Source of the DNA: Eubacteriales bacterium
Lineage (GTDB): Bacteria > Bacillota > Clostridia > Oscillospirales > CAG-382
Length of the DNA stretch: 48,687 nt
Direction: 5' to 3'
Assembly: GCA_045657245.1 (NCBI GenBank)
Contig: JAZOSQ010000012.1
Location: 1 to 48,687, forward strand
Part shown: positions 13,727-43,576 of the stretch, piece by piece
Numbering within the stretch: the first letter of the stretch is position 1
How the letters are laid out: the number at the start of each line of letters is the position of its first letter
Notes under the pieces: model-generated
Told to the model about the DNA's origin: nothing
Databases searched by the model: none
The model's input: the letters and a program-made list of their open reading frames with translations, nothing else
Position numbers and translations under genes: made by a program

Positions 13727-13743
13727 GTGTGTACTCCATTAGC

Positions 13744-15691: not shown

Positions 15692-15718
15692 ATTGGAAGC
15701 ACCTCCCGGTTTAAGAAA

Positions 15719-16828: not shown

Positions 16829-16870
16829 GATGAAAGTTCTCCTGATATTCAAAAATTCAAAAGGTTTTTA

Positions 16871-18103: not shown

Positions 18104-18137
18104 AATTTATACCTCTGCATTGCGGTAGATTCGGTTA

Positions 18138-19589: not shown

Positions 19590-19648
19590 CGGAGAGCCTC
19601 CTTAAATGTACGGGAACTTGAGCAACGATAAGGAAGAGTTGTTCAAGA

Positions 19649-20611: not shown

Positions 20612-20636
20612 TCAATTATATCTCCTTTGATGATGG

Positions 20637-21590: not shown

Positions 21591-21605
21591 TCTTTTTCTC
21601 CTTTA

Positions 21606-22763
21606 TCAGAAGCACCATAGATACGGCATGGTTTGACTTGCGTTACGAATCGCATAAAATGCCAACCAATACATAAGCGCGATACCGACGATTATGCCTC
21701 TTGTGATCCAGTGGGTTTGTTTGTTACAACGGGCATAGGTGCGATCAAAAATACCAATCGTCACAATGTTTTGCAACGAAAAATATGCGGCGATTCGTTT
21801 GCCGAATACGATGAAGGCGGTGAGCTGTTGGAAAATCAAATAGCAAGCCGTGCACACCAAGAAATATTGCAAAAGCGAGTCGGTTTTTTTCAATCTATGG
21901 CGCAAACGATATGCCATTACAAGCTCGAACACCAACAACAAAGAAACAATGCCGGCATAAGATCTTGATTCGGTAACCATATAGAATTTATATTTATCGC
22001 TCAAGATCCCTACAAAAATCAATAGCTGACACAGAGGTTTAAACAACAGTACACCGGAGCCAAGAGCCGTCACGATAAAACGTTGACGTTCTTTTAACGA
22101 CCAAACTCGTTTTTCACCGAAAAATTTGCGTCCTCGGAATTTATATCCTCCGACGGTATATTTGCCGTACATAATATAGTAAATAGCCAATGCGCCGAAT
22201 GCCAACAACGCGGTGGAGTGGATTAAAGATGCTATAATAACCACGACAGAATATCGACGGAATTTCTTCTGCTCGATATCCTGCAAAAACGCAAAAATTA
22301 ATGCCATCGCCATATATTGACGCATGATGTTGAGCGAATGATTGAAGAAAAGCAAGTAAAATAAGGTTATAACCAATAGCGGATCTGCGTGCTTTTTCAT
22401 TCGGAAAGCACCGATATATACCCCCGTGATGATCCATGCATGAGCAAAGAACAGGAATAGTCGAAACCAACCGGTCGTTTGCGCAATTGTTCCCAAGAAA
22501 ATGGCAAACAACGGCTCGGTCCAGTTTTTAAGGTTCAAATATTCCCACAGTGAGTCCGCAGCCATGGCGGTCGGCCAATATTGTTGGTTGTGGACACGAT
22601 AGTTTTCCACGTCGATACCGATACTGTAATCGCGCAACCCGGCCAATATGACGGGCAAAGCGATACTGATGACCATATATGTAATTTTTTTGCGGTGGTC
22701 TGTTTGTTTCAACGCTAAATAGGCGAGAAAAATCGACAGACCAAAACACACAAGATAGGTCAT
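21606..22763 (-). CDS. EpsG-family (Wzy-like) polysaccharide polymerase
   Basis: About 10 TM; LRDYSIGIDVENY, EPLF, NIMRQYMA, IHSTA, C-terminal PY. Start moved to ATG 22763 using the GGAG RBS. Confidence 0.82.
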   Translation of the reverse strand: MTYLVCFGLSIFLAYLALKQTDHRKKITYMVISIALPVILAGLRDYSIGIDVENYRVHNQQYWPTAMAADSLWEYLNLKNWTEPLFAIFLGTIAQTTGWFRLFLFFAHAWIITGVYIGAFRMKKHADPLLVITLFYLLFFNHSLNIMRQYMAMALIFAFLQDIEQKKFRRYSVVVIIASLIHSTALLAFGALAIYYIMYGKYTVGGYKFRGRKFFGEKRVWSLKERQRFIVTALGSGVLLFKPLCQLLIFVGILSDKYKFYMVTESRSYAGIVSLLLVFELVMAYRLRHRLKKTDSLLQYFLVCTACYLIFQQLTAFIVFGKRIAAYFSLQNIVTIGIFDRTYARCNKQTHWITRGIIVGIALMYWLAFYAIRNASQTMPYLWCF

Positions 22764-22833
22764 AAGAAGTTCTCCCAAGGGCAAAATTCGCCGGAAGGCA
22801 CAAATACCCCATAATATACTTATTCTATTTTCC

Positions 22834-23140: not shown

Positions 23141-23169
23141 AAAAAAGCCCGAGGTAAATCCTCGGGCTT
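23141..23169 (-). terminator. intrinsic terminator of the tubulin-like operon
   Basis: AAGCCCGAGG-TAAAT-CCTCGGGCTT stem with a U-tract on the minus strand, ~48 nt past the stop at 23217. Confidence 0.75.
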
Positions 23170-23216
23170 GAAACGTTATGTTTTATCCAACAAGTAAGGT
23201 TTCGTAAAACCTGCAC

Positions 23217-24293
23217 TCATCCGAACGGATAACGGTCGGGTGTGAAGGGCGTATCCTCACAAGTCATCGCATCGCGAGACAACGGATATGCATCCTCGTA
23301 CAAGCAGAAGCCAACACCATAGTCGTCTTGACGATTTCGTGTGATAAGCTCTTCCCGCTTTGCCACGGTCGTTTCGCCAATCAAATATAAATATTGAATT
23401 TCCGCCCATTTTGCCATGCCTTCATAAATCAGCAAACGTTTGCTCTTGGGACATTTTTTAAGGTTTTTATTGTTGTCCCAATGAGTATATTGCCAAATGT
23501 GCGTTAATTCATGAGCGAAGGTTGCAATCAACGAAATTCGAGGAGCGCCATTTTCTAAAATGATGCTATATTTCTTTTTCTTGTTAATGGCAACACCCAG
23601 AATCAACATGCTTTGGCTATCGGCTGTTCCTAAAGGCATTCCTAAACGTTTTTTAAGTTTTCTTTCTTCTGTAACTTCAATAGAAACAGGCACATCGATT
23701 GTTGCAGCAAAGAAGTTTTCCATGTTCAAAGCAACTCTTTGACAAATTTCTTCCGCTTCGGATTTGGTTTTCACGATAGAGCTACTGCAAGTCGTGCAGC
23801 GCATACGACCATCAGGCAAACGATAAAATTCGACACCTGCGATTTCTGCTCCGCAATAAGAACAATACATTTGATTGTTTTTGCTGCTGTCTGACTCGCG
23901 AAAAACTTCAGAATCATGTTTTCCTTCTCTAGCTTGGCGGAGTTCTCCTCCATCAAAGCCCAAAAGATTCAGAAAGTTTTTGGTTTCTTGCAAATCTAAA
24001 GGCGTGCTGCGTTTTCCTTCGCGATATTTAAGATAATATCTTTCGTGGTAAGGAACCTCAGCTTTGGTATTAGATTCAGCAACATCAACCTGCGAAGTTG
24101 TTTCTGCAGTTTCGGTTTCTTCAACAGAATCGAATTCGGTAGCATCAACCTGCGAAGTGATTTCTGCAGCTTCGGTTTCTTCAACAGAATCGGATTCGGT
24201 ATCATCAACCTGCGAAGTGATTTCTGCAGTTTCAGATTCTTCAACAGGAGCATCCTGTTGGAGTTCTTCGGATATAGAGTTGAAATCACTCAT
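23217..24293 (-). CDS. DA1-like zinc metallopeptidase with a CxxC..CxxC Zn-finger and acidic repeat N-terminus
   Basis: YCSYCG...GRMRCTTC; FAHELTHIWQ (HExxH); YEGMAKW; DDYGVGF; RBS GAGGTG; ATG overlaps the upstream stop. Confidence 0.75.
   Translation of the reverse strand: MSDFNSISEELQQDAPVEESETAEITSQVDDTESDSVEETEAAEITSQVDATEFDSVEETETAETTSQVDVAESNTKAEVPYHERYYLKYREGKRSTPLDLQETKNFLNLLGFDGGELRQAREGKHDSEVFRESDSSKNNQMYCSYCGAEIAGVEFYRLPDGRMRCTTCSSSIVKTKSEAEEICQRVALNMENFFAATIDVPVSIEVTEERKLKKRLGMPLGTADSQSMLILGVAINKKKKYSIILENGAPRISLIATFAHELTHIWQYTHWDNNKNLKKCPKSKRLLIYEGMAKWAEIQYLYLIGETTVAKREELITRNRQDDYGVGFCLYEDAYPLSRDAMTCEDTPFTPDRYPFG
24074..24247. repeat. 60-bp tandem repeat, ~3 copies (VEETEAAEITSQVDDTESDS-like)
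   Basis: CATCAACCTGCGAAGT...TTCTTCAACAG recurs with a period of 60 nt. Confidence 0.9.
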
Positions 24294-27200
24294 TCTCGCT
24301 CACCTCAACTTCGTTTTGTGATTCATCAAGATCTGTTACATCATCTTTGGAAGAATCTGCATCGTCCTGCGCTTCGTCAGCTTCGATTGCTTCTTCGGAA
24401 GAATCTGCATCGTCTTGTGCTTCGTCAGCTTCGATTGCTTCTTCGGAAGAATCCGCATCGTCCTGCGCTTCGTCAGACTCGATTGTCTCTTCGGAAGAAT
24501 CTGCCTCAGAAGGTTGATTTTCTACCGCTTCTTCGGTTTCAACCTGTTCGTCAGCTTGTTTCTGTTTCTTAGCAAGTTTTTTCGCTTCTTTTTCGGCCTG
24601 TCGTTGTTCTTTTTCGGCCTGTTTTCTTTCTTTTTCAGCTTGTTTTTTCGCCTGCTTTTCAGCTCGTTTTGCGGCTTTTTCGGCTTTCTTGCGTTGTCTG
24701 GGAGTTAGATTGTCGCCATCCTCCGATGTGGCTCTATCAGAATTATCTTTTGCTTTTTTGTTTTTCTTGAATAATCCTTTGAACCAGCTTGCGATTCTGC
24801 CGAAAAATCCTTTTTTCTCTTTTGTTTCGCCATCTTCGGCATAAACATCGAATTGAGCAGAGTCGTTATCGGATGTGGGCGCGTCTTGTTTGCGAAGACT
24901 TTCTTCGATTTGTTCGTCATTCCAAGCAAGATAATCTGCAATTATTTGGAAAATACGCTCGATATTACGTTCGACAGCAATCAATAGACCGATGTCAAGT
25001 TGGCTATCTTCAAGAATGAAAATACATTTATCTGTATTTTCGACTTCTTCTCCAAACGCAAGACTATAAGTCAACGGAGCATCATATTGTCCCGGTGTTA
25101 CCGCCGAAATGAAAGGTTGATTTTCTGCAAACAAAGTCACAAAGATTTCGTTTAATAGATTGGTTAATGTCATTCTCACAGAATCTGTGAAAGCATCACC
25201 AAGCTTGGAAAAATCGAACTTTAAGATTTGTTTATGGAAATATTCGCGTTTAGGAACGCCATTTACCATAATCACATCGCCGTCATCAAAATCATTATGG
25301 GCGTGTAGTTTCCAATATCCGGGAGTTTCGACACTGAAATCGGCAAATTGATAATGAATGTCAATGTTATTAACCGATTTCAACGCACCCATAGAAGAGC
25401 TATCTTCTATTTTATGCAAGGTGTAATTACGAATTTGACGATATGCCAATCTGCCGCCGATATGTTCTGACGCACGACGTACCAAAATACGGTTATCCGT
25501 GGCATTAGAAATCATTTCGTAATATTTACCATTAAGGGTGAAGAATTGTCCGGGCAAGTATTTTTGATATACGTGACCCTTCAATTCGGTGCCGATATAA
25601 ATATCTCTGTCTTCTTGCTCAGCAATATAACTTGCATTTTGCAAATCGTTCAAGATGATTCTTGAAAAGTTTTCATTTTCGATTGTGTAAACACTTTCGA
25701 ATTTTCCGCTTTCAATATCATATGCACGTGTGAAAAGTATGGTCGAATCTTTTTCGAAGGAAACGTCAACACCAAAACTATTCTTGAACGAAAGAATTGC
25801 GTTTCCGTCCTTATCTTTGGTTTCTTCTTTTCCGAATATTGTACAAATTTCTTCCCAAATTGCGGAAATGGGATCTTTTGTATCGATATTCAACATAACC
25901 AATTGTCGAAGAAGAACTTCTTCTTTGACAGAATCAATACACAACAACAAACACAACGTCAAAATGGAATTACGTTTTGTACGTGCGTAATCGGCTGTAA
26001 TATACGGAATTGCCTTGGCATCCGTTAAAAACAACTTCGAGTTGCTTGACATATATTCTCGCAACATATATTCCGAAGATATGACGTTTACGAATCCTTG
26101 TTGTTCTGTGACTGTAGCGAAATTTCTTCGTGTTTCAAACAAGTTATTACGGTCATCTTCGACAGTAATAAACGAATTATCGCCGACACGTTCGTCACAC
26201 ATGTTTATAGATGTGCGGAAACATTTGTCAAAGGTTTCTTGGTTGGTGGGAAGTTGCGCATAATTAAGCAAATCATAATAATATTGTTTTGCTATCCAAT
26301 GAACATCGCGCACCGGGTATGCTTCGCTACCATACCAAATGGTTTTTTCCACTTGGTTTTTTAATGCGACCATAGAAAATTCGGTACCCATACCCAAAGA
26401 TCTGGATATACCCGGCAATATTCTATGTTGCAAATAATCCTCGTCGGAGGTCCAATACATATAGGAACTCATGCCATGAGGATATTCGGTGGCGGAAACT
26501 TCGGTGATGTTGGTCATTAAAATATGCGAAAGAGCATCTACTAATCCATCGCAGTTGCGGTCGACCGAACAGAATGTGATGTCGCGTTCTTTTCCGCAAC
26601 ATTTAACAAGCAAGTTCAATCCTATTTGAGCAGTGGTAACCAGTTTGGAAGGTTCTACCATAAACACAAAGGATACTTTTCGGAGGAACGCAAGGTTGTT
26701 TTTGTGAATATCCAACGAATGAACGCCGGAGCGTGTGATAATTCCGATGTCGGGAAGATCATCCTCGTTGGTTTTTTCGCCGGTGATGACTCTTATTTTC
26801 CAAAGATCGGGAATGTTTGAAATTCCTTTCATACCTTCGGAACTCCATTTGAGAAGATCATCCTCGGTTCCGTGGCGGCCCAATACAATGAGTATTTTTC
26901 CGCCGGTGAGTAATTCGCGGTTCATTGCATAGAAAATGTAGGGGTTCAGTTTGTCATAAAACGGAGTGTTAAACAACAAACTTTTGCCAACGGATAGGTC
27001 GTAACCACAACGAAGATAGTCTACGTTGGGTTTCAATCCGTTTTCCATTTTATTGCGAATGAACATAGCATAGTTTGCGCCGATATGCTTGCCATTTTTC
27101 TCGAGATCAACCAAAATATCTTCGAGGGCGCCACCCGTCATTCCGCCGTTGTTAACGGTGGTTCCTTCTGCCGCGAGTTTGTCTCCAAACAATAATCTCA

Positions 27201-27921
27201 ACGGTTTACGCAAAAGCGGGTACATTGCAATATGGCGAGCAGAATCCGATTGCATTTCGAATGATGCCTTTTTTTCGTCTGCGCTTATGCCGTCAATAAA
27301 GAAGGCCAATTCGCCAATAATTATAACCGCAAAAACCGGATAGAACGGTGCGCTTATCAAGTTATTCATGCACAAGCCGCAAGAAACGAACAGAGCCACT
27401 CCGGATATGAAACAGCTTCCGTAATATGCAACTTTTATGAAGGTACGGGCCTGACCGTAATGTTCCTTGATATACCAGCAATCGTCCAATTCGTCGTAAG
27501 AGTAGAACAATTCTACCATCGAACGCACAAACGTATTCTTGGGAATCTTTATTCTTCCGATTATTAAAGTCAAAATGCGTTTGGCTATTACATAAAGTAC
27601 AAGCGCTGCGGTATTGAACAATACCAATTCAAGATAGATACCCCAACTTGTATAAATATCGCGGATAAAATTCCCGACCATAGGGAGGTGTATCTTATCG
27701 AATAACACAGCAACCAAAATGAACTTATCATAAATGAATGCCGCCAACTTATCAAGAAATATCAGCAACGTGACACTATATACAACAGCAATTATAGGCA
27801 TTGGATATTGTCGGTTGCGGTTTTCTTTTTTTACGTTGGATTTGCCATTAAAAAATGCAAACAGCACGAAGGGAAGAAATGAAATAACAAATTCTATCCA
27901 AAACAGAATATTACTTTTCAT
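24286..27921 (-). CDS. 1211-aa membrane protein: ~5 N-terminal TM, degenerate SF2 helicase-like core, charged/acidic tail
   Basis: Hydrophobic N-terminus; GKSLLFNTP, FLRKVSFVFMVEP and CSVD fall in the order of helicase motifs I/II/III but lack GKT and DExH; PGQFFTLNGKYY; FILEDSQLDIGLL. Confidence 0.6.
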   Translation of the reverse strand: MKSNILFWIEFVISFLPFVLFAFFNGKSNVKKENRNRQYPMPIIAVVYSVTLLIFLDKLAAFIYDKFILVAVLFDKIHLPMVGNFIRDIYTSWGIYLELVLFNTAALVLYVIAKRILTLIIGRIKIPKNTFVRSMVELFYSYDELDDCWYIKEHYGQARTFIKVAYYGSCFISGVALFVSCGLCMNNLISAPFYPVFAVIIIGELAFFIDGISADEKKASFEMQSDSARHIAMYPLLRKPLRLLFGDKLAAEGTTVNNGGMTGGALEDILVDLEKNGKHIGANYAMFIRNKMENGLKPNVDYLRCGYDLSVGKSLLFNTPFYDKLNPYIFYAMNRELLTGGKILIVLGRHGTEDDLLKWSSEGMKGISNIPDLWKIRVITGEKTNEDDLPDIGIITRSGVHSLDIHKNNLAFLRKVSFVFMVEPSKLVTTAQIGLNLLVKCCGKERDITFCSVDRNCDGLVDALSHILMTNITEVSATEYPHGMSSYMYWTSDEDYLQHRILPGISRSLGMGTEFSMVALKNQVEKTIWYGSEAYPVRDVHWIAKQYYYDLLNYAQLPTNQETFDKCFRTSINMCDERVGDNSFITVEDDRNNLFETRRNFATVTEQQGFVNVISSEYMLREYMSSNSKLFLTDAKAIPYITADYARTKRNSILTLCLLLCIDSVKEEVLLRQLVMLNIDTKDPISAIWEEICTIFGKEETKDKDGNAILSFKNSFGVDVSFEKDSTILFTRAYDIESGKFESVYTIENENFSRIILNDLQNASYIAEQEDRDIYIGTELKGHVYQKYLPGQFFTLNGKYYEMISNATDNRILVRRASEHIGGRLAYRQIRNYTLHKIEDSSSMGALKSVNNIDIHYQFADFSVETPGYWKLHAHNDFDDGDVIMVNGVPKREYFHKQILKFDFSKLGDAFTDSVRMTLTNLLNEIFVTLFAENQPFISAVTPGQYDAPLTYSLAFGEEVENTDKCIFILEDSQLDIGLLIAVERNIERIFQIIADYLAWNDEQIEESLRKQDAPTSDNDSAQFDVYAEDGETKEKKGFFGRIASWFKGLFKKNKKAKDNSDRATSEDGDNLTPRQRKKAEKAAKRAEKQAKKQAEKERKQAEKEQRQAEKEAKKLAKKQKQADEQVETEEAVENQPSEADSSEETIESDEAQDDADSSEEAIEADEAQDDADSSEEAIEADEAQDDADSSKDDVTDLDESQNEVEVSENE
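24349..24504. repeat. 48-bp tandem repeat, ~3.3 copies (ADSSEEAIEADEAQDD)
   Basis: GGAAGAATC(T/C)GC at 24349, 24397, 24445 and 24493. Confidence 0.9.
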
Positions 27922-30016
27922 ATATTCCCTCCATTCTCACTGAAATACGTGTGACATAACTTGACGGTACGGATACAAAATTACCGCCAGAAATAAATTC
28001 AATTTGACGTTTATCCCCAGCAAGGAACGGTGCGGGATATTCAAATTCTAAGGCTTGATCAAAATCATATTCATAGGGACGACACATGGTTTCATCACAG
28101 AAAGTAGAACGATCGCCAAAATAGTCTCCGTAATCTTCAAGAAGTTGTGCACGTCTTTTCTTGATATCTTCTTGATGTTTTTTACGAATGCGCAAACTTC
28201 GTGTATATACATCCAAGTTTTGTGTTGCAAATTTTCGGACCGCATGACCTCTGCGCACATTCGAGGAAGCACTTAAATATTTAGAGAATCGTCTCAGTGA
28301 TGATTGAATGTCGTTTATGATTTCGTGTACAGTATCGTTGTACGCTTTAACAGCTTTTATTAAAGCCGTTCGTAAGAAAAACAAGGTTGCAAGCAAAATG
28401 ATTGCGAGGATACCTGTCATTGAAAGACACAGGACCACCGCTGTGCTGACCGTTTTGAGCGTGTTGTGGTTTGCAAGGAGGAATGGCGAGAAGCACATTA
28501 TATATAAACCAATGCAAATTGCACTCAAAATCATTACGGTTTTTTTGGACATACGACCGCTAATGGCCTTTTTGATTTTCTCAGACTCACTTGATATGCG
28601 TTTGTTGTGCTTAGATACGTCTGTAAAATCCGGGGGCACAGATGCAATCATTTCATCTTCTTCGGAATCGGTATAATCGCGAATATCGTCAATCTGTAAG
28701 GGCGTCAAACGACTGATGTTGATATCAAGCATATCATCAAAAGTAGCCATCTGGTTTACGCTTTTCCTAACAGCGCGAGATTGTTGCTTCGCAATATACG
28801 CAAGAGCCTTTTCGGACTCGCGAAAACTACTGTTCCATTTATGGTATTCATTTTGGGGACTATCGAAAAATAAACCATAATCCTTTTCGGCAAATACCTT
28901 TTCGAAATCGCATGATTCGTCCAACAACACAGGTACATCTTTCGGTGTACAAAACATTGCTTCGGCGGCTTTGTCTGTGAGATCAGCCGGGATTTCTCCA
29001 CGAATCTTTTCCATTTCGGCTTCGATAACCTCATACGTTGACGACAACTTCTTGTCATAAGAGGTTACCATCGTACATAACGGAGCGTCGTCGGTTTCGA
29101 CTTCAAGTTGATATAGACGTCTTGCCTGCAACGCGCTTCCGGGAACCGGATTGGAAATAAAGATTAGAGTCGAAGCCAAAAATCTAATATAGTCGGTACG
29201 ATAATCGCGATGGTGTTTAGGTAGCAAATCAAACACCATAAAGCGCATCTTATCGAAATACATATTACGATCAGCGAATTTTGAATATTCGCTATCTTGA
29301 TATATGTTCCAATAGTCTTCGGGATCGAAATAACTTTTTTCCGTTGTACGAATGGAAATGCATTGTATTTCCGTCGGAAAGGCGATATTCAAAGTATTTC
29401 CTGCGAGAAACTCTCTTCGAATATTTTCCTTCACGCGCAACTCGTTTTTATATTGACTTTTTTCGAGCAACTCTAATCTCGCACTGGGTTTCAAACCATT
29501 TTGGTCGAATTGTTCCATCGCCCAATCTTGAACACTCTGTTTATCCTTAACGTCGTTGAGGATATAGTCTTCGGGTTTAAAACACAACCATGTGGACAAT
29601 TTTTGAAGCGGATTCGTTAGAGCGCTTCTATAAATTTCGGTTTTTTTAGTTGCCACTTCGTCATAGTGCTTTTTCCACTCATTTTCCCATAAATCCCAAG
29701 ATTCATCCTTGTCGGGTTGGGCTTTGGGAGGAGTCATAGCGGAAACGGCACTGTAATCGACGATATCAAAGGGGTTGCGCATCTTTATGCTATCGGAAGT
29801 CACGGGATTAATTATGACTGCGCGCCAAACCTTTTTTCTTCCAACGGCATCCAGCAATCCCGGGACAGAATCGGCAAGATTCTGTCCCATCGGATTCCAA
29901 TAACAAAATGAGATTTCCTTGTTTTTCAGAAACGGTTCAAAAAACAGCTTATTATCCTGCTGTATAGCATCAATATGTTCTTTTTCAGCTATTAAAACTG
30001 TGAACAAATTCATCAA
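27911..30016 (-). CDS. hypothetical 701-aa protein with a 2-TM hairpin flanked by coiled-coil segments
   Basis: Long ORF that overlaps the downstream gene by 11 nt; two adjacent hydrophobic helices (TVMILSAICIGLYIMCFSPFLL / VVLCLSMTGILAIILLATLFFL). Confidence 0.8.
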   Translation of the reverse strand: MMNLFTVLIAEKEHIDAIQQDNKLFFEPFLKNKEISFCYWNPMGQNLADSVPGLLDAVGRKKVWRAVIINPVTSDSIKMRNPFDIVDYSAVSAMTPPKAQPDKDESWDLWENEWKKHYDEVATKKTEIYRSALTNPLQKLSTWLCFKPEDYILNDVKDKQSVQDWAMEQFDQNGLKPSARLELLEKSQYKNELRVKENIRREFLAGNTLNIAFPTEIQCISIRTTEKSYFDPEDYWNIYQDSEYSKFADRNMYFDKMRFMVFDLLPKHHRDYRTDYIRFLASTLIFISNPVPGSALQARRLYQLEVETDDAPLCTMVTSYDKKLSSTYEVIEAEMEKIRGEIPADLTDKAAEAMFCTPKDVPVLLDESCDFEKVFAEKDYGLFFDSPQNEYHKWNSSFRESEKALAYIAKQQSRAVRKSVNQMATFDDMLDINISRLTPLQIDDIRDYTDSEEDEMIASVPPDFTDVSKHNKRISSESEKIKKAISGRMSKKTVMILSAICIGLYIMCFSPFLLANHNTLKTVSTAVVLCLSMTGILAIILLATLFFLRTALIKAVKAYNDTVHEIINDIQSSLRRFSKYLSASSNVRRGHAVRKFATQNLDVYTRSLRIRKKHQEDIKKRRAQLLEDYGDYFGDRSTFCDETMCRPYEYDFDQALEFEYPAPFLAGDKRQIEFISGGNFVSVPSSYVTRISVRMEGIYEK

Positions 30017-30031
30017 CTCCGTTTCTTTTTA

Positions 30032-33000
30032 TTATTTGCCAGTTTCGCTATCCTTAAACTCTTTTGCAACTTTATCCAACAATGCTTCATAATCTTCGGG
30101 TTCGGGAGCGGACAAAATTACATCTCTAATCTTTCTCTGAATGATGTCGATAACGAGGTTTTCGTGTGCAGCGGGAGCACGCAATTTGTCAACATAAAGC
30201 TGATAGTTGCGCTTCAAGAGGTTAAGCTCGTCTGTCAAACGAGTACACAATACAAACTTCGCATCTTCTTCTTTTTCCCACTGACAATATTCTTCGCGGA
30301 ATACATCAATAACAGCTTCTACCATAGCGGTAATTTCAGAGATGTATCTAGCAGAGTTAGGAGATGTACAGTAATACATCAAGGGGATTGCAAACAAGCT
30401 TGTAGCGTTTTCAACGTACAATTTGCCGTCGTCTTCGCGTTCAGCGGGATTCCAGCTCTTGTCGTTCTTGATGCGGTTCACCTTGTTTTCGCGGATTTTA
30501 TCTCTCAATGCATCCAAACTGTTTTGAGTGCCGTCGCAGTTATCGTGAGCTTTAGCTTCGTCGCAATCGGGAAGCATATGCAACAAGTTGAATGTGGACA
30601 TATCCTTGAAGAATTCTGTATGTTCATAGTTACAGTTCTTCGCTTCGCTCATCGCTCTCTTACGACTCTTGATGAGGTTGATGTCTTCGACAACTTTAGA
30701 ATTTACATACAATGCATCCAAAACTTCGTAGAATTCATCACACAAGGTTCCGTTAGGAACGGTCAATTCAACGTCGCGGTTGTTAGAATCGCGATACGAG
30801 AAAACTTTCTTGCCATTTGCTACAGCAGACAAAGATCTTTGCTGGATTGCGTTGTGGATGAGACCATAAACAAAGGCTTTATGTACTTTGCGAATTACTT
30901 GGTCTTGATAGTTGAAGTCCAATTCAGGCATACTCTTGATGGAGTCCCAAGCCTTATCAATGTGCGTAGAAATAGCAGCATTCTTGGTGGAGTCAGGACC
31001 AATTAAACGAGAGTAGTCGGTATATGCCTTGTGATAGGTTCCGGCGTTCTTCTTACCGGTTTCGGTTTCGAACGGAGCCGCAAACTTCTTCAATTTATCG
31101 GGAGTGAGGTTATAAAGTGCGTTGTAGAAACGAATTTCATATTTAGAAACTGTATCTACCGCGTCACCCTTGGGCATGAGGTCCTTAACATTGAATCTGC
31201 GGTTATCCAACAAGCACTTGTTGTACGCACAAACTTTGATTTCTCTGGGTTCTTCGTTGGTTGCACGTTGAACCGAAGGAGCGGCAATACGAGCACCCAT
31301 AGCGATGACTTCCTTGATGTGGCGTTCTGCATCTGCTATAGTAACCTGTTCGAACACCTGAGTATCGCCGTTGTTTTCATTGCGCAAACGGATACGTTCC
31401 TTCAAGCGCTGTTCGAGTTCGATAGCGCCGATGATATCACGATCGATATCGTCGCATTTTTCGTAAACGCTGTTCTTGAAGTATCCCATCAAGATGTCGT
31501 CGAATATATTGACACGACGGTCTTCTTCGATATATCCGCCACCGGTATTATCAAGTTCCATCTTGAATATTGCGTTTTTCTTAACAGCGTCGAAGATACT
31601 ACCATTGATGTCGGAATTCAACATGGTTGTTTCTTTTTGAGCCTTCTGGAGAGAGAAGGTGCTCAATTCTTCCAACAAGTCTTTGGTTGCGCAAATATTC
31701 ATGAAGGAATCGCCCTTCTTGTAACGAAGTTCGTCAACCAAGTCGATCTTCTTGCGGCTGAGGTCCTTAACCTTGTAAACAAAGGTGTTGAAGAAGGTTT
31801 CAAACTGTTCGATAAAGGCTTTAATGTATTCATATGCCTTAACATATGCAGCATGAACAGCGACAGCTTTGCAGTATTCTTCGAGTGCAGCAAAATATCC
31901 GGGGATATCGTTGTTTGCTTCATCGTTAAGAGCACTGTAACCCTTAAATTTATCAAACAAACCTACATTTTCTTTTTCGAGTTCGCCGAGAGCTTCTACG
32001 CCGAACACCTTTTCTTTGACAAACTTGAATTCATATTCTTTGTCTTTATAGTTGTCGATGTTTTCTTTAGCGCGAAGGTGTGCTTCACTCTTAACTTCTT
32101 CGGTGAAGTTGTCAAGCAAACGATACAAAACATAACGAGCTGCACAAGGATGGAAAAGTTCACCCTGAGCGTTGCGCATAAGGCTTTCAATGCAATAGGT
32201 GTCTTTAATTCCGGCTGTGGGCTGTTCGTTGGTGAATTGAGCTTCTACCCAACGACTTACGATGCCTTCGGAGAGGGGAGAACCGTCCTTGCTTTGTGCT
32301 TCGACAATGTCACGATATTGGCTCAATGCGTTAACAGCATCTGCGATTTTGTTTTCGCTTTCGCCAAACGAGGTGTTGCTTTCGAACTGTTTAGCAGCAT
32401 CATAGCAAGAACCGAAACGTTTATCCTGCAAAACAGTGAAGTATGCCTGATTTTCGAAGCTTGTCTTGAAACGCTTAATGCGTGCATCCAATTCTTCAAG
32501 TTCGTAGGTGTTGATAAGGTCTTTAGAGAAGGGATCCTTTGCGTTGACCATGGTATCGCAGAAAACTTTACCATAAGAATCCCATGTGGACATAGGTACA
32601 CCGCGCTTCTTTTGTTCTGCTCTATAAGAACGCACCGCGTTGTCGTATTTTGTCCACTTTGTAGCATCGCCTTCGCCACCGATACTGTCAATAGCGAGGT
32701 CATAAGAAACATAATCTACAATTTTTTCATAAGGATAACGGATAACACCGGCACCGATACCACCGAAACGGTTACGACCATAGTTGCCGGGTTTGGTCAT
32801 TTCCTTAATAATATTATCTTCTACAGAGAATGCCTGTTTCTGCATAGGACCGATATTCTGTTCGTAAAGCGCCTGAGCTGCCTGCTCGACATATTGATCC
32901 TTGCTGATCATAGTGCTGTCTTCGGCGTCTTGACCATCCATAAGGAAACAGAAGTCCATCGGCAACAAGGAGAGAGCTTTTTGGTTATCCGAGCCTGCAA

Positions 33001-33754
33001 TAGATACGTTTACATGGAGGTTGGAGAACTGCTTCAAGTCTTCGTCCAAATCGATAAAGCCCGAGCCCTTCATCATGAATGCGTTCAATTCTTTGATTGT
33101 AGCATAAGCATTGCGTGCTTGGCTATCACGTTCGGTCTGAGAATCAATTACGCTGTCCAAAGTTTCAGGCAACAAAATGAGAGAACGGACAATCAAGCTT
33201 GTGTTAGGATATTTTGCCTTTACATAGTCGCGAATAAACATACTTAAAGGGAGAATAATACCGGAACCGGTACCACCCGATGCAGTAGAAGCAATAACAA
33301 CACGCATTGCCTGCTTCATGTCTTTACCGGTCTTGCGGAAAAGATCATCGATGGAGTCATATAAAGGACGAATCTTACCGGTTTTGATGGTAGCGTTCAA
33401 TGCCAATCTGGAAATTGCACGAACCTGACCAGCACCCTCGGAAACGGTCTTATCATACATAACTGCATTTTTAGGGAACCATTTCTTACGAGCTTCTTCG
33501 TCGTAATCCAAATAACTGCCTACGGTTTGAGTATTGGATGTTTGCACCCAATAAATTTTAGATTTGCCGTTAGCAACATCGGAGAGGTCGTTTACGTTGG
33601 TGTCCAAGCAAAGGAAGTTTATGTTTTCCTTTTCTTCGGGAGCACACAAATCCGCAACTTTTTTCACGATTTTACAACCGGTACCACCTACACCGACGAA
33701 CAATGTAGGAGCTGCAACTTCATTGGGCTTTAATTTTTCTCTTTTGAATTCCAT
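30032..33754 (-). CDS. large tubulin/FtsZ-like GTPase (Tubulin_2-type N-domain plus long helical C-terminus)
   Basis: FVGVGGTGCKIV, CLDTN, EGAGQVR, ASTASGGTGSG (tubulin signature), ILLP, ARNAYATIKEL; RBS GGAG. Confidence 0.85.
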   Translation of the reverse strand: MEFKREKLKPNEVAAPTLFVGVGGTGCKIVKKVADLCAPEEKENINFLCLDTNVNDLSDVANGKSKIYWVQTSNTQTVGSYLDYDEEARKKWFPKNAVMYDKTVSEGAGQVRAISRLALNATIKTGKIRPLYDSIDDLFRKTGKDMKQAMRVVIASTASGGTGSGIILPLSMFIRDYVKAKYPNTSLIVRSLILLPETLDSVIDSQTERDSQARNAYATIKELNAFMMKGSGFIDLDEDLKQFSNLHVNVSIAGSDNQKALSLLPMDFCFLMDGQDAEDSTMISKDQYVEQAAQALYEQNIGPMQKQAFSVEDNIIKEMTKPGNYGRNRFGGIGAGVIRYPYEKIVDYVSYDLAIDSIGGEGDATKWTKYDNAVRSYRAEQKKRGVPMSTWDSYGKVFCDTMVNAKDPFSKDLINTYELEELDARIKRFKTSFENQAYFTVLQDKRFGSCYDAAKQFESNTSFGESENKIADAVNALSQYRDIVEAQSKDGSPLSEGIVSRWVEAQFTNEQPTAGIKDTYCIESLMRNAQGELFHPCAARYVLYRLLDNFTEEVKSEAHLRAKENIDNYKDKEYEFKFVKEKVFGVEALGELEKENVGLFDKFKGYSALNDEANNDIPGYFAALEEYCKAVAVHAAYVKAYEYIKAFIEQFETFFNTFVYKVKDLSRKKIDLVDELRYKKGDSFMNICATKDLLEELSTFSLQKAQKETTMLNSDINGSIFDAVKKNAIFKMELDNTGGGYIEEDRRVNIFDDILMGYFKNSVYEKCDDIDRDIIGAIELEQRLKERIRLRNENNGDTQVFEQVTIADAERHIKEVIAMGARIAAPSVQRATNEEPREIKVCAYNKCLLDNRRFNVKDLMPKGDAVDTVSKYEIRFYNALYNLTPDKLKKFAAPFETETGKKNAGTYHKAYTDYSRLIGPDSTKNAAISTHIDKAWDSIKSMPELDFNYQDQVIRKVHKAFVYGLIHNAIQQRSLSAVANGKKVFSYRDSNNRDVELTVPNGTLCDEFYEVLDALYVNSKVVEDINLIKSRKRAMSEAKNCNYEHTEFFKDMSTFNLLHMLPDCDEAKAHDNCDGTQNSLDALRDKIRENKVNRIKNDKSWNPAEREDDGKLYVENATSLFAIPLMYYCTSPNSARYISEITAMVEAVIDVFREEYCQWEKEEDAKFVLCTRLTDELNLLKRNYQLYVDKLRAPAAHENLVIDIIQRKIRDVILSAPEPEDYEALLDKVAKEFKDSETGK

Positions 33755-33771
33755 GGTGGTTTCTCCTCTAT

Positions 33772-36327
33772 TTATTTCTTTTTAAAATTCAATCTTGTGT
33801 TTACGTTAAAGGTTTTCTTTACACCGGCGGAAGTAATTGTGCCGGAATAAACAACAGGAACACCGTGTTTAAGATTAAGCGGAGCTTTGGACACGGGTTT
33901 GCGCTCTAACACATTTTTATCGTTAAGTACATATCTTGCGCTAGCGATAGTGGCGCTTTCGATGTTGGCGTTGCCGATTTTTTTAACCACACCGGGATTT
34001 ACAACTTCTGCATAGCGTTTTGTCTGTTTTTTATACAAATAACTTTCTTTACCGGGCTTTGCGGGGAAGGCGAGACCAATCTTGTTGCCGCCATATTTAA
34101 CAACGACGTCCGAAGCAGAACCGCTGAAATTACAGAATTTTGTAACATCTTCGCCATCGATAAGCACTCTGCTGTCTCTCTTGGAAATATGAGCATGTTT
34201 AGGCATAACTCTAATATGCAAAATTATCCAAATGATGATTGCCAACAACAATAGGAACAACAACGCTGCTACCCATTTAACCCAAAGCGGAAGATCGCTG
34301 AGAGTGACTGCTTGAGTCGCTTCTGCATAGGTCTTTCTTCCGATTGCATCCTCATACGATGCGGATGCGGTGATTTGATAGTCTCCCTCTTGGATTCCTT
34401 CCGTGGATAAAAACTTGATTTTATATTCGGAAGATTGCGGATTGGGAGTTAGTTTGTATTTTATACCGTTGCAATCCATCGTCAACTTGACAGAAGCGAA
34501 TTCTTCTTCAGTCAAAGGCTTTCCGTTAATGGTTAGCTTTACAATAGCTTCGGGATTTTCTTCAATTTCTTTAATGACGATATAGTCGTTGGGTATAGAT
34601 AATTCCAAGCCCAACTTCTTAAGATCAGAGTTTATCGTGTAAGTAAGATTGCTTCTTGTTTGCGAAGGGTCGCTACCTTTTTGAGTGTATTTTGCGGTTA
34701 TACCAACCTTGAATTCACCTGTCGCAGTATCTTTGGGTGAATTGGGATTCTTATGGTGCAAAGTTAATATATAGTGATCGTCTTTAAGTTCTTTTTTGAT
34801 CTCAACGGCACTCTTTTCAGAATTCCATGTCAACTCTGTACTTTCAAGTTCGGAACCTGTCAAGAGCTCGCCCTTATAATAAACTTTTGCAATAAACGGC
34901 GATCCGCCTTCGAGGTTAAGTAGCGAATAGTTTTCGTCGCCACCGGAAATTTCCAATCTTAAGTCTCCGGCAGGTCGTGCTGCTACTTTTATACCACCCG
35001 ACGGCCATCCAAAGTCAGAAGAGTCTTTTGAAATGGTGTACCCACTCAAATAAGTTACGGTCAAATTAGCATCGAAGGAATCTCCCATGTTTAAGGTAAG
35101 ACTAACTTCTCCGCTGGAGCCTTTTTGACTGATAGGGTATTCTTTACCATTAATGCAATAGCTTCCTTGATATACCGGTTCGCCGAGCAGGTCGGAGGAA
35201 ATCAGCTTTCCTGTTTTTGCATCCTTCATACCGAAGCTGACTTTATATTCACCTTCGTATAATGCATCGGGGTCTACCTCGTTGCCGTCCGCATCTGTAA
35301 ATACGAAATCCAAATCGGCATCGGGCTCATAGTATACTTCGACACTGCTTGCGTTGCCGGAATATTCAATCGTGTAATTTCCTGCCGCGCAATCAGTATA
35401 TGTAACCATCATGCCTTGCAACGACGTATCGGGAACGGCTTTCAGATTGCCTGCGCCCACTGTTGAATATTTTGTCTGTTGCGAACTCACCTTTTGAGAA
35501 TCGGAAATACCGTTGACTTTTAAATTTGATATGTTTTCGCCTTGTACAAAAACAATCAATTTTTTCAAAGACATATCGAAATCGATTTTTTTGCCCGAAA
35601 TTCTATTTTTAGGCAATGTATCTCGTCCGAATATTTGGTTGCACATGAGAGTTAGTGTCGATAATACGTCTTCGGTATTAACGACTTTCTTTTTCACGAA
35701 ATATTTGGATTCAGCGAGACTGGGTAGAGCAGCCTGCGAGCCGATCCCCAAATACATAATGGTTAAGTCTTCGCCGGCCTTTTTGAAACGTTTATCAAGA
35801 ACGCCTATTGTGTCTTTGCACTTCTCGTCGTTTTCAGTAAAAACGTCACCGTCGGTTAAAACAACCAAATATTTTTTGCCACCGCTTATCTTTTGCAATC
35901 CGTTTATTGCACCGTCGATACTTTCTATAGGTGTAAGACCGGTTTCAATTGTGAAGATTTCGCGAATCTGCGATGCTTGAGAGGGGCTCTTGATTTCAAG
36001 AGGAGATTCCATCGAGTATATCTTGTCACCAGATTTACCAAGCTTAATCGGGTGCATTGGATATATTTGCAATGTATCGCCATCGTTAAGCATGGATGCG
36101 AAAACTTCCATAGCATACGTGGCTCTGCACCATTCCAAGACTGGCTTTTTATCCAGCATGTACATCGAACCGGAGTTATCGAAAACGATTGCGATGTTAC
36201 GCGATTCGGTAGGCTTGCTTGCTGCACTGACGTTGCAAGGAACGATCGGCAACATAAGCAACAAAAATGCCATCAAGACAGAACAAATCCACCTTATTTT
36301 GTTGTGTTTCATCGTCATGACCACCAT
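33772..36327 (-). CDS. VWA-domain surface protein with signal peptide and a single C-proximal TM; start may be 36310
   Basis: Signal peptide ...VPCNVSAA; MIDAS residues IVFDNSGSM, TP, VLTDG; beta-rich stalk; TM WVKWVAALLFLLLLAIIIWIIL; basic cytoplasmic tail. Confidence 0.85.
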   Translation of the reverse strand: MVVMTMKHNKIRWICSVLMAFLLLMLPIVPCNVSAASKPTESRNIAIVFDNSGSMYMLDKKPVLEWCRATYAMEVFASMLNDGDTLQIYPMHPIKLGKSGDKIYSMESPLEIKSPSQASQIREIFTIETGLTPIESIDGAINGLQKISGGKKYLVVLTDGDVFTENDEKCKDTIGVLDKRFKKAGEDLTIMYLGIGSQAALPSLAESKYFVKKKVVNTEDVLSTLTLMCNQIFGRDTLPKNRISGKKIDFDMSLKKLIVFVQGENISNLKVNGISDSQKVSSQQTKYSTVGAGNLKAVPDTSLQGMMVTYTDCAAGNYTIEYSGNASSVEVYYEPDADLDFVFTDADGNEVDPDALYEGEYKVSFGMKDAKTGKLISSDLLGEPVYQGSYCINGKEYPISQKGSSGEVSLTLNMGDSFDANLTVTYLSGYTISKDSSDFGWPSGGIKVAARPAGDLRLEISGGDENYSLLNLEGGSPFIAKVYYKGELLTGSELESTELTWNSEKSAVEIKKELKDDHYILTLHHKNPNSPKDTATGEFKVGITAKYTQKGSDPSQTRSNLTYTINSDLKKLGLELSIPNDYIVIKEIEENPEAIVKLTINGKPLTEEEFASVKLTMDCNGIKYKLTPNPQSSEYKIKFLSTEGIQEGDYQITASASYEDAIGRKTYAEATQAVTLSDLPLWVKWVAALLFLLLLAIIIWIILHIRVMPKHAHISKRDSRVLIDGEDVTKFCNFSGSASDVVVKYGGNKIGLAFPAKPGKESYLYKKQTKRYAEVVNPGVVKKIGNANIESATIASARYVLNDKNVLERKPVSKAPLNLKHGVPVVYSGTITSAGVKKTFNVNTRLNFKKK

Positions 36328-36401
36328 CCTTTGTGATGAAAAGGTTTTTCGAAATATGAGCTACATGTCTCGATATTCGATTTTACTAAAATTTTAATAT
36401 C

Positions 36402-36430
36402 ATTTTACCATATTAAAACCAAAAAAACAA
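36402..36430 (-). promoter_or_regulatory. sigma-A promoter of the five-gene tubulin-like operon
   Basis: Minus strand TTGTTT, 17 bp spacer, TAAAAT, with a TGn extension. Confidence 0.55.
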
Positions 36431-36598
36431 CACTTTTGTACATATTTTGTCAAAATTTGACAAATATTTTTTTCACAATTGAGCGTTTTAAATCACGAGA
36501 AGATTTTTCGATAAGGATTGTTTTTAGAAAGACGATAAACATAAGAGGGTTTCTCTTTTGCAAGCGATCTCAGGCGATCTTGTTATTAATAAACGCAC

Positions 36599-36630
36599 AA
36601 AACCCCTGGAGTTTAAAATCCAGGGGCTTT
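36599..36630. terminator. intrinsic terminator after the lipoprotein pair
   Basis: AAAACCCCTGGA-GTTTAAAA-TCCAGGGGCTTT. Confidence 0.7.
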
Positions 36631-36712
36631 GTATTTTCTTTGTTGTTCACAATGGCTTTTCGAAATAAACAATTGCGAAGAATTTATTGTACGAATAGAT
36701 GGTAGAAATCCA

Positions 36713-38752
36713 TTAATCTAATTTCAACACGACCTTTTCCGATTCCATAATGACCTTGTTTTCATCATACAAATCAGTAATGCGGAATATTACTTCCATT
36801 TGCTTTGGTCCATCAGGATCGTCTGTGCTCGTATCGTTTGAAACCTCAAGTAGCGAACATTGACCTTTGCCGGCAACGCCGGAGCCCATATTACGTTCAT
36901 ATGACGTATTTTCGTTCGGTTCGATAATCGCAGAAACTTTTATGTCATGTTCAGTTTCGTTAAATACAGTAAACTTCCATGAAGATTCGCCGGGGAAGTT
37001 TTCGATGCGAATACCGTTTTTCTCCCAAACGGTAATGCCTTTTTGCACAGGATTTGCTGTTCCGTGGGTGTCGAGTTTCACATCGAACCAGTAATAATCA
37101 TATGTATACGAAGCCCAATTGTTATTTTTTCGTACACCAAGCAAAATCTTCAAGGTTTCGATTGACGGATTTGTTGCGGGTTCCAAACGATATTTCGAAA
37201 TATCGCTGATCAGATAACTATAACAACCGCCCGGCACTGTCACAGGGCTATTCATTTTTGTACATACATTGTTTAGCGTTGCTGCAGAAATCGCTACGAC
37301 CTGCTCTTGTTGAGTTAAATTTTCAACTTTATATGTCATGTATAAGGAACTGTCATCTGAATGCAACGAACCTGCACAAAGCAAGGTAAGACGTATTTTT
37401 TCATTTTCGAAAACAACTTGTTCTTTTGCAACAGCATCAAACCCTGGAGTTGTTAAATTGAAATAACCGATATTTGTGGTTCCGAGTGGCCAAGCATCCG
37501 TCATATCAACCGACACCAAAAGATCGGGAAACAAAACCGCGCCTTCTTCTTCTGCGCTTACTAAAAAGCGAATTTGTTTCAGGTCTTTCAATTCAGGCAA
37601 ACCATCATCGAAATCAAACGTCCCTACATAGTTGAGCTCACTGACAAATTTACCGGGTTCAACGGTCAAATAACAAAATTTACTATCGTACAAATTGTCG
37701 TTGATTAAAAGATCAACTGTCTTAACTTGGACATTATGGTTGCGATTGTTTTTCACTTTCAGTGCATAAAATGACTCGCCGTTCCAACTTTTTTCAACGG
37801 ATATATAAACTTCGACACCGTTTTTCTCGAATAGAAGTTGTTCGCGCTCGCCTTTTTCCCATTTGGCGGTTATATCAGGTTCTTCTTTGAGTGCAAAGGT
37901 TGATTCATTTTCGGTGGATGCGCTATTGCTAGTGTCCTTATTCGAATCGTTGTTGGGATTTTCTCCATATGACACCCAATCCGTAACATATTTATCACCA
38001 TTAACATCGGTGATCTCATATATGACGTAATACTCGCCATCTTCAAGCGGAACATATTCCATCTTTATATCTTCGGAAAGAGTATAACTGTATATTAGAA
38101 TATTCGGCGTGGTTCTCCACTCGCTAATGGGAAGCGATTTGTCTTCGTTTGATAGTTCGTAAATGGTGCCTGCTGTTAAAGAGACATTTGCATAATTTGA
38201 AAAATCGGGCAGATTATCATATTTTCCCGAAAACAGTTCTTCGTCGGTTCCTTCGTCTTTCGGTCTCATAGCTTTCAATACGGGTTCGTTAGAAGTGCCA
38301 TCAACCTCGATTAAATATCGATATCCAACATAGCCGGAACTATCATCGTTTGTGACGTTACTTTGCAAAACAGAACTGCCGACAAAACTTAGCGGTTTGC
38401 CTTCTACAACATTCATATCCGACGGAGGATAGCTACTTTCTTCTTTGCCGTCCGATATTTTAATTCCCATACCATTGAATTCAGTGTTCAACACACCGTT
38501 GGAAAAAGTAACAGCACAGTTGCGATATTGTATCCTGTAAAGGTTTGCACCTTCGCGCTTAATAATATGGCTGACTGCCGATTTGTACGTTTTTATTTGT
38601 TCTTCCGTCAACTTGACACAGTGTTTGTTTTCGTTTGATTCGATTTTTGATGTTTCATCAATCGAAGTTTGAGTTGATTCAGCACAAGCGCTTAAAATCA
38701 TGCAAAAGATCACCATAAGAACAATGGCAAGTTTGATTTTTTGAAATCTCAT
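36713..38752 (-). CDS. lipoprotein paralogous to the C-terminal part of the adjacent clostripain-like protein
   Basis: Lipobox LSAC; shares collinear blocks with the 1067-aa protein (EYVPLEDGEYY vs EYAPLANGEYY, among others). Confidence 0.8.
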   Translation of the reverse strand: MRFQKIKLAIVLMVIFCMILSACAESTQTSIDETSKIESNENKHCVKLTEEQIKTYKSAVSHIIKREGANLYRIQYRNCAVTFSNGVLNTEFNGMGIKISDGKEESSYPPSDMNVVEGKPLSFVGSSVLQSNVTNDDSSGYVGYRYLIEVDGTSNEPVLKAMRPKDEGTDEELFSGKYDNLPDFSNYANVSLTAGTIYELSNEDKSLPISEWRTTPNILIYSYTLSEDIKMEYVPLEDGEYYVIYEITDVNGDKYVTDWVSYGENPNNDSNKDTSNSASTENESTFALKEEPDITAKWEKGEREQLLFEKNGVEVYISVEKSWNGESFYALKVKNNRNHNVQVKTVDLLINDNLYDSKFCYLTVEPGKFVSELNYVGTFDFDDGLPELKDLKQIRFLVSAEEEGAVLFPDLLVSVDMTDAWPLGTTNIGYFNLTTPGFDAVAKEQVVFENEKIRLTLLCAGSLHSDDSSLYMTYKVENLTQQEQVVAISAATLNNVCTKMNSPVTVPGGCYSYLISDISKYRLEPATNPSIETLKILLGVRKNNNWASYTYDYYWFDVKLDTHGTANPVQKGITVWEKNGIRIENFPGESSWKFTVFNETEHDIKVSAIIEPNENTSYERNMGSGVAGKGQCSLLEVSNDTSTDDPDGPKQMEVIFRITDLYDENKVIMESEKVVLKLD

Positions 38753-38756
38753 CGTA

Positions 38757-43558: not shown

Positions 43559-43576
43559 GATTTCCTCCACCCAGAA

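Follow-up and report, generated by a model that had tools for sequence, protein, structure and literature searches.

Two groups of described systems combine tubulin-like proteins with von Willebrand factor A (vWA) proteins. Makarova and Koonin (2010; PMC2875224) defined the FtsZl1 plus vWA operons and proposed that they act in membrane remodelling, and Kaur, Burroughs, Iyer and Aravind (2020; PMC7159879) proposed nucleoside triphosphate (NTP)-gated assemblies with peptidase-type processing. Here we analyse a five-gene operon in a stretch of 48,687 nucleotides (nt) from a Clostridia genome (contig JAZOSQ010000012.1 of assembly GCA_045657245.1), with the whole stretch hereafter called the window. 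Five successive minus-strand open reading frames (ORFs) span 36327 to 23217 and constitute one self-contained membrane-associated module. We place it among the FtsZl1 (Tubulin_2)-vWA operons as a lineage-specific variant, and it is related to the tubulin-vWA conflict systems. The anatomy of the module is assigned with high confidence. We tentatively suggest that it could serve conflict or envelope signalling as a proteolytic switch that is triggered at the surface and gated by GTP, a mechanism that we infer from this anatomy. The five genes, in the order of transcription and with coordinates from the ORF list, are as follows:

33772..36327, minus strand: gene for a vWA-like membrane protein, 851 amino acids (aa)
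30032..33754, minus strand: Tubulin_2/FtsZl1 gene, 1240 aa
27911..30016, minus strand: gene for an adaptor with a transmembrane (TM) hairpin, 701 aa
24286..27921, minus strand: pseudo-helicase gene, 1211 aa
23217..24293, minus strand: HExxH metallopeptidase gene, 358 aa

Comparison with described tubulin-vWA systems

Comparison with the FtsZl1-vWA operons (PMC2875224) revealed a common core, in which a divergent FtsZ/tubulin GTPase with large extensions is encoded beside a vWA protein with an intact metal-ion-dependent adhesion site (MIDAS) and membrane proteins. The sparse distribution and the additional presence of a canonical FtsZ are also shared; in the genome analysed here, the canonical FtsZ is encoded elsewhere (FtsZ_C match, E 7.9e-35). 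A reviewer comment published with that paper indicates that the locus of Pseudoflavonifractor (then Bacteroides) capillosus was already part of the 2010 survey. In its main text, the other operon genes are described as lineage-specific and lacking recognisable domains, and the words helicase and protease do not occur, whereas the partners in the window operon are resolved as a pseudo-helicase, a zinc-ribbon HExxH peptidase and a TM-hairpin protein. Unlike the FtsZl1-vWA operons of PMC2875224, the window operon contains no kinase, P-loop GTPase or OmpA gene.

The systems of PMC7159879 likewise occur in Firmicutes and comprise C-terminally extended tubulin proteins adjoining a membrane vWA protein whose vWA domain is extracellular. 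A Pfam scan of the five window proteins detected no DO-GTPase, GAP1, FNIII or HSP70 domain, in contrast to those systems; where these components would stand, the operon has the 701-aa protein, the pseudo-helicase and the peptidase instead. A true relative of the PMC7159879 class is a second operon type in the same genus, which encodes a DO-GTPase2-like protein together with a homologous vWA and Tubulin_2 head and is described below.

Operons that combine FtsZl1 with vWA and membrane proteins have been in the literature since 2010 (PMC2875224), and a first-pass annotation of this DNA had noted the co-occurrence of Tubulin_2 genes with vWA and membrane protein genes. The same annotation had not recognised the combination of pseudo-helicase and peptidase partners as a described configuration, and this specific partner set indeed appears to be undescribed: our literature searches found no paper on it, although the supplementary families A1-A2 and B1-B9 of PMC2875224 may list these genes unnamed. 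The main text of a YprA census preprint (10.1101/2025.09.15.676423) contains no mention of tubulin, FtsZ, vWA, transmembrane or peptidase. Of all branches of the tubulin superfamily, FtsZl1/Tubulin_2 has diverged furthest, and the literature searched reports no experiment on its function.

Conservation and organization of the operon

An alignment of four homologues of the 701-aa protein was used to scan one genome per prokaryotic species, yielding 63 loci, which were then compared by tblastn with the five operon proteins and three flanking proteins. Conservation of the five-gene order had been set beforehand as a test of the prediction, and gene order and strand were identical in all 46 complete loci; in the other 17 of the 63, genes were missing only where the contig or locus stopped. 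None of the 63 related loci contained the genes that flank the operon in the window (C11 peptidase, 679-aa ORF and EpsG). The five genes therefore form a discrete cassette, its internal order being kept in 46/46 loci and the three window neighbours in 0/63.

All identified loci lie within one order of Clostridia. According to the record titles, the carriers are metagenome-assembled genomes of gut or rumen Clostridia, together with Pseudoflavonifractor capillosus ATCC 29799 and P. intestinihominis. Of 36 further genomes in the genus, 4 contain close homologues. In wider samples, which include many incomplete genomes, a pseudo-helicase profile matched 16 of 400 genomes of the order, distributed over 9 of 30 families, and none of the 400 genomes of a phylum-wide sample. 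The median identity to the window proteins is 49% for the vWA protein, 61% for the 701-aa protein, 65% for the peptidase, 68% for the pseudo-helicase and 79% for the tubulin-like protein, making the surface protein the fastest-evolving and the tubulin-like protein the most conserved member of the set. The module is available in cultured strains (P. capillosus ATCC 29799 and P. intestinihominis) as a compact, strictly conserved four- or five-gene cassette whose partners now have structural identities, so that both the membrane remodelling proposal of 2010 and the conflict system proposal of 2020 become directly testable.

Within the window, the successive genes are separated by spacers of 17 and 15 nt and then overlap by 11 and 8 nt, exactly the gaps and overlaps that the first-pass annotation had reported. 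Direct reading of the junctions revealed a Shine-Dalgarno-like GGAG/GAGG motif ahead of every start, and the last junction, between the pseudo-helicase and peptidase genes, is the ATGAGTGA start/stop overlap. The 701-aa ORF opens with TTG-ATG and has GGAG 4-7 nt upstream (window 30013-30016); translation probably begins at the ATG at 30013, one codon inside the annotated start, which would extend the spacer to 18 nt. The G+C content of the operon is approximately 40-43%, with no contrast to the adjoining DNA. The signals around the operon are listed below:

36596..36633, minus strand: intrinsic terminator of the unrelated upstream 679-aa gene, 15-pair stem with 7 GC pairs and a T-rich tail
36395..36470, minus strand: putative promoter region, roughly 70-140 nt ahead of the first gene, with TTGACA-like and TTGTTT/TGgTAAAAT elements
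23169-23145, minus strand: first intrinsic terminator closing the operon, 10 pairs, 7 GC, T tail
23076-23053, minus strand: second intrinsic terminator closing the operon, 10 pairs, 6 GC, T tail

The terminator at 36633-36596 insulates the operon from the upstream gene, and two intrinsic terminators stand where the earlier description had placed one. The promoter claimed there is less certain. Consensus-level elements can be read by eye near 36425-36395 (TTGTTT, 17 nt, TGgTAAAAT), but the site is absent from the promoter-scan listing, and promoter-like sites in the region are not enriched relative to shuffled sequences (30 found, 30.2 expected).

The tubulin-like GTPase and the vWA surface protein

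Judged by its sequence, the 1240-aa protein is tubulin-like and cytoplasmic and has kept its GTP-binding signature intact, as originally predicted. It belongs to Pfam Tubulin_2 (PF13809; 178.2 bits against a cut-off of 27, E 3.7e-52, residues 18-355), and the whole-genome scan recovered the same locus. The loop sequences GVGGTG (residues 21-26) and SGGTGSG (residues 159-165), and with them the T1, T2-like, T3-like and T4 motifs, are invariant in 25/25 aligned homologues. The C-terminal extension of approximately 850 aa is also well conserved in this 25-sequence alignment, and its comparison with the ESM Atlas gave low scores of 0.79 and 0.76 to other Tubulin_2 clusters, to be taken as a lead only. 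A single-sequence search of the Protein Data Bank (PDB) returned chance matches only (E >= 0.04), and a profile search aligned T1 and T2 to FtsZ weakly (E 1.4). The vWA gene lies directly upstream of the tubulin-like gene in all 46 complete loci.

The 851-aa product of this upstream gene contains a signal peptide, a TM helix at residues 685-703 and a cytoplasmic tail of 148 aa in a TM scan. Its sequence features mark it as a type I membrane protein with an extracellular vWA-like domain and beta-rich, immunoglobulin (Ig)-like repeats. The MIDAS residues D50, S52, S54, T132 and D159 (DxSxS...T...D) are invariant in 17/17 homologues, and the cytoplasmic tail is poorly conserved across the aligned homologues. 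For the window protein itself, a Pfam scan gave no family at E <= 0.1; weak matches (E 0.003-0.009) were observed for 2 of the 17 homologues to Pfam VWA_2 and for 1 of the 17 to Pfam VWA. Comparison of the family with first-gene paralogues by hhalign gave a probability of 96.3% (E 1.9e-9) over 145 columns that include the MIDAS, and the paralogue set contains a member with 31 bits to Pfam VWA (cut-off 23.8). The vWA surface protein with an intact MIDAS in the first-pass annotation is thereby supported by the invariant site and the profile-profile match, though not by a Pfam match. Sequence and profile searches of the PDB with this protein found nothing.

The membrane adaptor, the pseudo-helicase and the peptidase

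In the 701-aa protein, an alpha/beta domain forms the N-terminal part and a small beta domain the C-terminal part, with long helices and a TM hairpin (residues 496-514 and 527-545) between them, and both termini are predicted to be cytoplasmic; two TM helices and long helices had been anticipated in its description as a coiled-coil protein with two TM segments. Its predicted model (pLDDT 84.6) has no Foldseek match at E <= 0.001. The helical part resembles generic helical-bundle folds such as talin, vinculin and catenin, within the noise expected of helical proteins. The N-domain shows no more than a borderline resemblance to tubulin folds, and a tubulin fold for it is a hypothesis. Alignment with the operon tubulin by hhalign detected no homology, and the ESM Atlas contained no usable match for the N-domain. 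Matches of the model to alpha-pore-forming toxins and dynamin-like proteins (E ~0.02, TM-score ~0.1) were rejected as long-helix noise.

The 1211-aa protein has approximately six TM helices within residues 1-214, as judged by hydropathy, followed by a MrfA/YprA (DUF1998)-type superfamily 2 (SF2) helicase region at about 260-1007 and a tail of K/E-rich and acidic repeats. Its soluble part was modelled from an 85-sequence alignment with pLDDT 91.9 and pTM 0.91, and the top Foldseek match of this model is the DUF1998 helicase MrfA (E 1.9e-23), which it resembles over the full length. The model contains two RecA-like domains together with the DUF1998-type C-terminal module, whereas DEAD-box and other SF2 helicases cover just the two RecA-like domains. 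Analysis of the 85-sequence alignment indicated that both Walker A GxGK[ST] and motif II DExH are lacking. At the corresponding positions, which were placed via predicted secondary structure and not by residue-level structural alignment, the family carries N/A-N/T-P-F-Y-x-D-L after strand 1 (P in 80/85, F in 84/85, Y in 81/85 and D in 83/85 sequences) and hydrophobic-E-P-S instead of DExH. Sequence and model together indicate that the protein almost certainly has no ATPase activity despite its helicase architecture, and the TM-anchored pseudo-helicase proposed from the sequence is confirmed in its fold and in its missing Walker A.

In MrfA, DUF1998 binds zinc through four cysteines. The pseudo-helicase has no cysteine among the invariant or near-invariant columns of the 85-sequence alignment and hence no invariant zinc-site cysteine, and it further differs from MrfA/YprA in its N-terminal polytopic membrane domain, in having a peptidase and not a nuclease as partner, and in its overall divergence (~11% identity, with Walker A and DExH replaced and no Pfam helicase/DUF1998 match). 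No Pfam family at all, and thus neither DEAD, Helicase_C nor DUF1998, is matched by the window pseudo-helicase at E <= 0.1. MrfA/YprA DUF1998 helicases occur in MrfAB repair and in the DISARM, Dpd, Druantia and ARMADA defence systems, and YprA/MrfA-type helicases are core parts of DISARM, Dpd and Druantia (10.1101/2025.09.15.676423). The pseudo-helicase family is large in gut metagenomes, with 604 clusters at 50% identity matching at E <= 0.001.

The 358-aa protein is composed of an acidic repeat N-terminus, a CxxC...CxxC zinc ribbon and a HELTH motif with a conserved downstream Glu, the combination of HExxH and downstream Glu that characterises zincins. The residues C144, C147, C166, C169, H261, E262, H265 and E291 are invariant in 35/35 sequences, in line with the HExxH peptidase originally proposed, and from these residues the protein is apparently an active cytoplasmic zinc-ribbon HExxH metallopeptidase. 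The more specific label of a DA1-like peptidase fared less well: there is a weak resemblance, but only 5 of the 35 members match DA1-like PF12315 (best E 6.3e-4), all below the Pfam cut-off, and the window peptidase has no match to this family. DA1 carries LIM domains. The DA1-like, DUF6782, DUF6055 and BSP zincins share with the window family a HExxH motif and a downstream Glu after a zinc-binding module, and all four families appear as sub-threshold Pfam matches; the window family differs in its CxxC...CxxC ribbon, and no member reaches a Pfam gathering score for any of them. Sequence and profile searches of the PDB with the peptidase retrieved zinc-ribbon ribosomal proteins alone (E >= 0.02).

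Among the 53 loci where the pseudo-helicase and the peptidase are both visible, the two are fused in 15, as one ORF of 1430-1600 aa, and split in 38. Many representatives of the 604 pseudo-helicase clusters are of the long form (1400-1600 aa), and homologue lengths range from 1042 to 1362 aa for the pseudo-helicase and from 286 to 488 aa for the peptidase. The peptidase is physically tied to the pseudo-helicase, either by translational coupling or by fusion. The split falls in an acidic linker encoded by tandem repeats. Three such repeats are present in the window (24083-24247, 24344-24504 and 24579-24646, with units of 60, 48 and 21 nt), and they encode acidic and K/E-rich disordered stretches flanking the split.

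A distant subfamily and a second operon type

A distant subfamily surfaced as weak matches in the order-wide pseudo-helicase search, and in 4 of 5 such genomes its gene follows a Tubulin_2 gene of the same strand at a distance of 5-9 kb. The two loci examined have a four-gene layout, encoding a vWA-like protein, a Tubulin_2 protein, a 730-790-aa protein and a protein of ~1740 aa. Both ~1740-aa proteins combine TM segments, pseudo-helicase, peptidase and a C-terminal Transglut_core domain:

L090, 11028-16256: pseudo-helicase E 5.9e-52, HExxH peptidase 6e-14, Transglut_core 1.1e-9
L091, 10685-15919: pseudo-helicase E 5.7e-46, HExxH peptidase 1e-13, Transglut_core 3.2e-7

From these domain combinations, the enzymatic C-terminus looks modular and effector-like. 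Re-use of a defence-type YprA/MrfA helicase as a membrane-bound dead scaffold for protein-modifying effectors would be a previously unreported fate for the family.

The second Tubulin_2 operon type of the same genus (loci L017-L021) has a homologous vWA and Tubulin_2 head, as in the following example:

L019, 1226-13977: vWA protein of 879 aa (passes Pfam VWA), Tubulin_2 protein of 1190 aa, proteins of 566 aa and 224 aa, DO-GTPase2-like protein of 517 aa, and a protein of 822 aa

The DO-GTPase2-like match (E 8.7e-5, 22.7 bits) lies below the cut-off of 27. The two operon types occurred together in none of the 36 genomes searched in the genus.

Proposed function and alternatives

In the proposed switch, the vWA ectodomain would bind an external ligand in a metal-dependent manner; phage particles, the surfaces of foreign cells and components of the envelope are candidate ligands. 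From there, the signal would pass to a sub-membrane assembly formed by GTP-dependent self-association of the tubulin-like protein on two membrane anchors, where the peptidase may be switched on when the dead-helicase scaffold clusters or changes conformation. The output would be the peptidase acting on protein targets, and in the sister subfamily the scaffold also carries a transglutaminase-like domain. The chain from sensor through polymerising GTPase to protease, as drawn in the first-pass annotation, is plausible from the domain composition. For the "trans-envelope" machine of that annotation, "trans-membrane" is the better term in these Clostridia, which, by their taxonomy, presumably have a single membrane.

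We read the module as a conflict or surface-sensing switch in preference to a housekeeping cytoskeleton. Its variable enzymatic C-termini, its fast-evolving ectodomain, its sparse distribution and the defence ancestry of its helicase fold (10.1101/2025.09.15.676423) fit the pattern of regulated conflict systems (compare PMC7159879). The vWA and Tubulin_2 head shared with the DO-GTPase2-like operon also fits the tubulin-vWA, GTPase-centric conflict systems of that paper. Several observations weigh against this reading. The vWA fold call is drawn from the MIDAS and a profile-profile match in a window protein that does not reach the Pfam cut-off. No operon protein matches PADLOC-DB 2.0 at E <= 0.001, the sole hit being to the candidate model PDC-M72B at E 0.01. 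Among the 82 nearest flanking ORFs of 46 loci, some 14 belong to mobile or conflict types (integrase, XRE-type helix-turn-helix, HepT, TIR, Fic, nucleases, M78, Macro, patatin and LRR), another 41 lack any Pfam match at E <= 1e-8 and the remainder are transporters or metabolic genes; a defence island is not clearly indicated by this proportion. A structural role in the cell would be equally compatible with a gene order this rigid and a tubulin-like protein this conserved.

The missing PADLOC matches and the mostly ordinary flanking genes keep membrane remodelling a serious, if rather unlikely, alternative. In a housekeeping-type remodelling or cytoskeletal machine, the tubulin-like protein would be the part that shapes or constricts membranes, as in vesicles or septa-independent remodelling, the membrane proteins would be anchors and the peptidase a maturation or turnover factor. 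Such a role is the published hypothesis for the FtsZl1 class (PMC2875224) and suits an operon with three membrane proteins among its five products, with the tubulin-like gene as its best-conserved member and with mostly ordinary metabolic or transport genes at its flanks. A general cellular function would be expected to occur more widely than in 16/400 genomes of the order and 4/36 of the genus; moreover, the fast-evolving ectodomain and the swappable enzymatic C-termini resemble sensor/effector logic, and remodelling offers no obvious use for an inactivated helicase scaffold of defence type.

By analogy with integrins, the module could instead be an adhesion-coupled surface system, in which the MIDAS-vWA protein would bind mucin, plant fibre or another cell, the ligand would be linked mechanically or by signalling to the sub-membrane scaffold, and the peptidase would shed or reset the receptor. 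We regard this as improbable. The ectodomain, with its MIDAS-vWA domain, Ig-like beta repeats and attached cytoplasmic tail, is suited to such a function, the identified carriers are all gut or rumen Clostridia by their record titles, and talin, vinculin and catenin are among the helical-bundle matches of the 701-aa protein, albeit within noise. Against adhesion, the vWA cytoplasmic tail is poorly conserved, no sortase or pilin features were seen, and the dead helicase is left unexplained.

A more elaborate form of the conflict switch, which we consider doubtful and offer as speculation, would be a tubulin-based immune signalosome reading two signals. The MIDAS-vWA domain would detect a phage or foreign surface outside, and the ATP-dead helicase, keeping its nucleic-acid groove, would detect incoming DNA inside. 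Both would trigger GTP-dependent assembly of FtsZl1 with the 701-aa protein, the latter as a degenerate membrane-anchored tubulin-fold partner in an alpha/beta-like heteropolymer, and would unleash the metallopeptidase, or the sister transglutaminase-like domain, on cellular or viral proteins.

Tubulin homologues are known to segregate plasmids and phage DNA. A TubZ/PhuZ-kind partition system carried as cargo of a phage or plasmid is nevertheless highly improbable here: integrases account for 2 of the 82 nearest flanking ORFs and a Tubulin_2 gene occurs in one record labelled "UNVERIFIED: Bacteriophage sp.", but a search of 72,556 plasmid records gave no full-length match (two N-domain-only matches, 27-29% identity), that record encodes LPG_synthase_C and an amidohydrolase with no phage hallmark among its five large ORFs, no centromere-binding, replication or relaxase gene is conserved beside the cassette, and three of its five proteins are membrane proteins. 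Phage or plasmid carriage is not supported by the plasmid-record search or by the gene content of the labelled record, MT836542.1 (locus L089, 1-9794). This record probably represents bacterial DNA that was assembled from a virome sample; its Tubulin_2 gene is 29% identical to the window protein over 80% of the length.

Neighbouring genes

Directly downstream of the operon and on the same strand, a polysaccharide biosynthesis cluster occupies window positions 12113-22784 (minus strand) and contains EpsG, two GT2 genes, a flippase, ATP-grasp, an aminotransferase, RmlA/RmlB-like genes and a sugar transferase. A link between the operon and this exopolysaccharide cluster was rejected, the two being separated by two terminators and ~430 nt and EpsG being found in 0/63 related loci. 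On the upstream side (36713-41960, minus strand) lie a gene for a 1067-aa Peptidase_C11 (clostripain) and, after 4 nt, that for the 679-aa protein, which has no Pfam or PADLOC family. Extension of the operon to these two genes was likewise rejected, with a terminator between and neither gene in any of the 63 loci.

Approximately 7 kb upstream of the operon (43577-45274, minus strand), a gene encodes a 565-aa protein that carries BspA-type LRR_5 repeats and, at its N-terminus, a TIR domain (Pfam TIR_2 1.4e-16 and LRR_5 1.9e-78; weak PADLOC matches to ThsB-like and SAVED-TIR), possibly a stand-alone immune or NADase protein from these domains. A CitMHS transporter gene is located at 42425-43570 in the window. 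CitMHS transporters flank 3 of the 46 loci, and in 5 of 46 (L026, L035, L043, L051 and L053) the cassette is immediately followed by a Na/Ca exchanger gene (Na_Ca_ex); these neighbours may reflect shared synteny of related species or a divalent-cation link.

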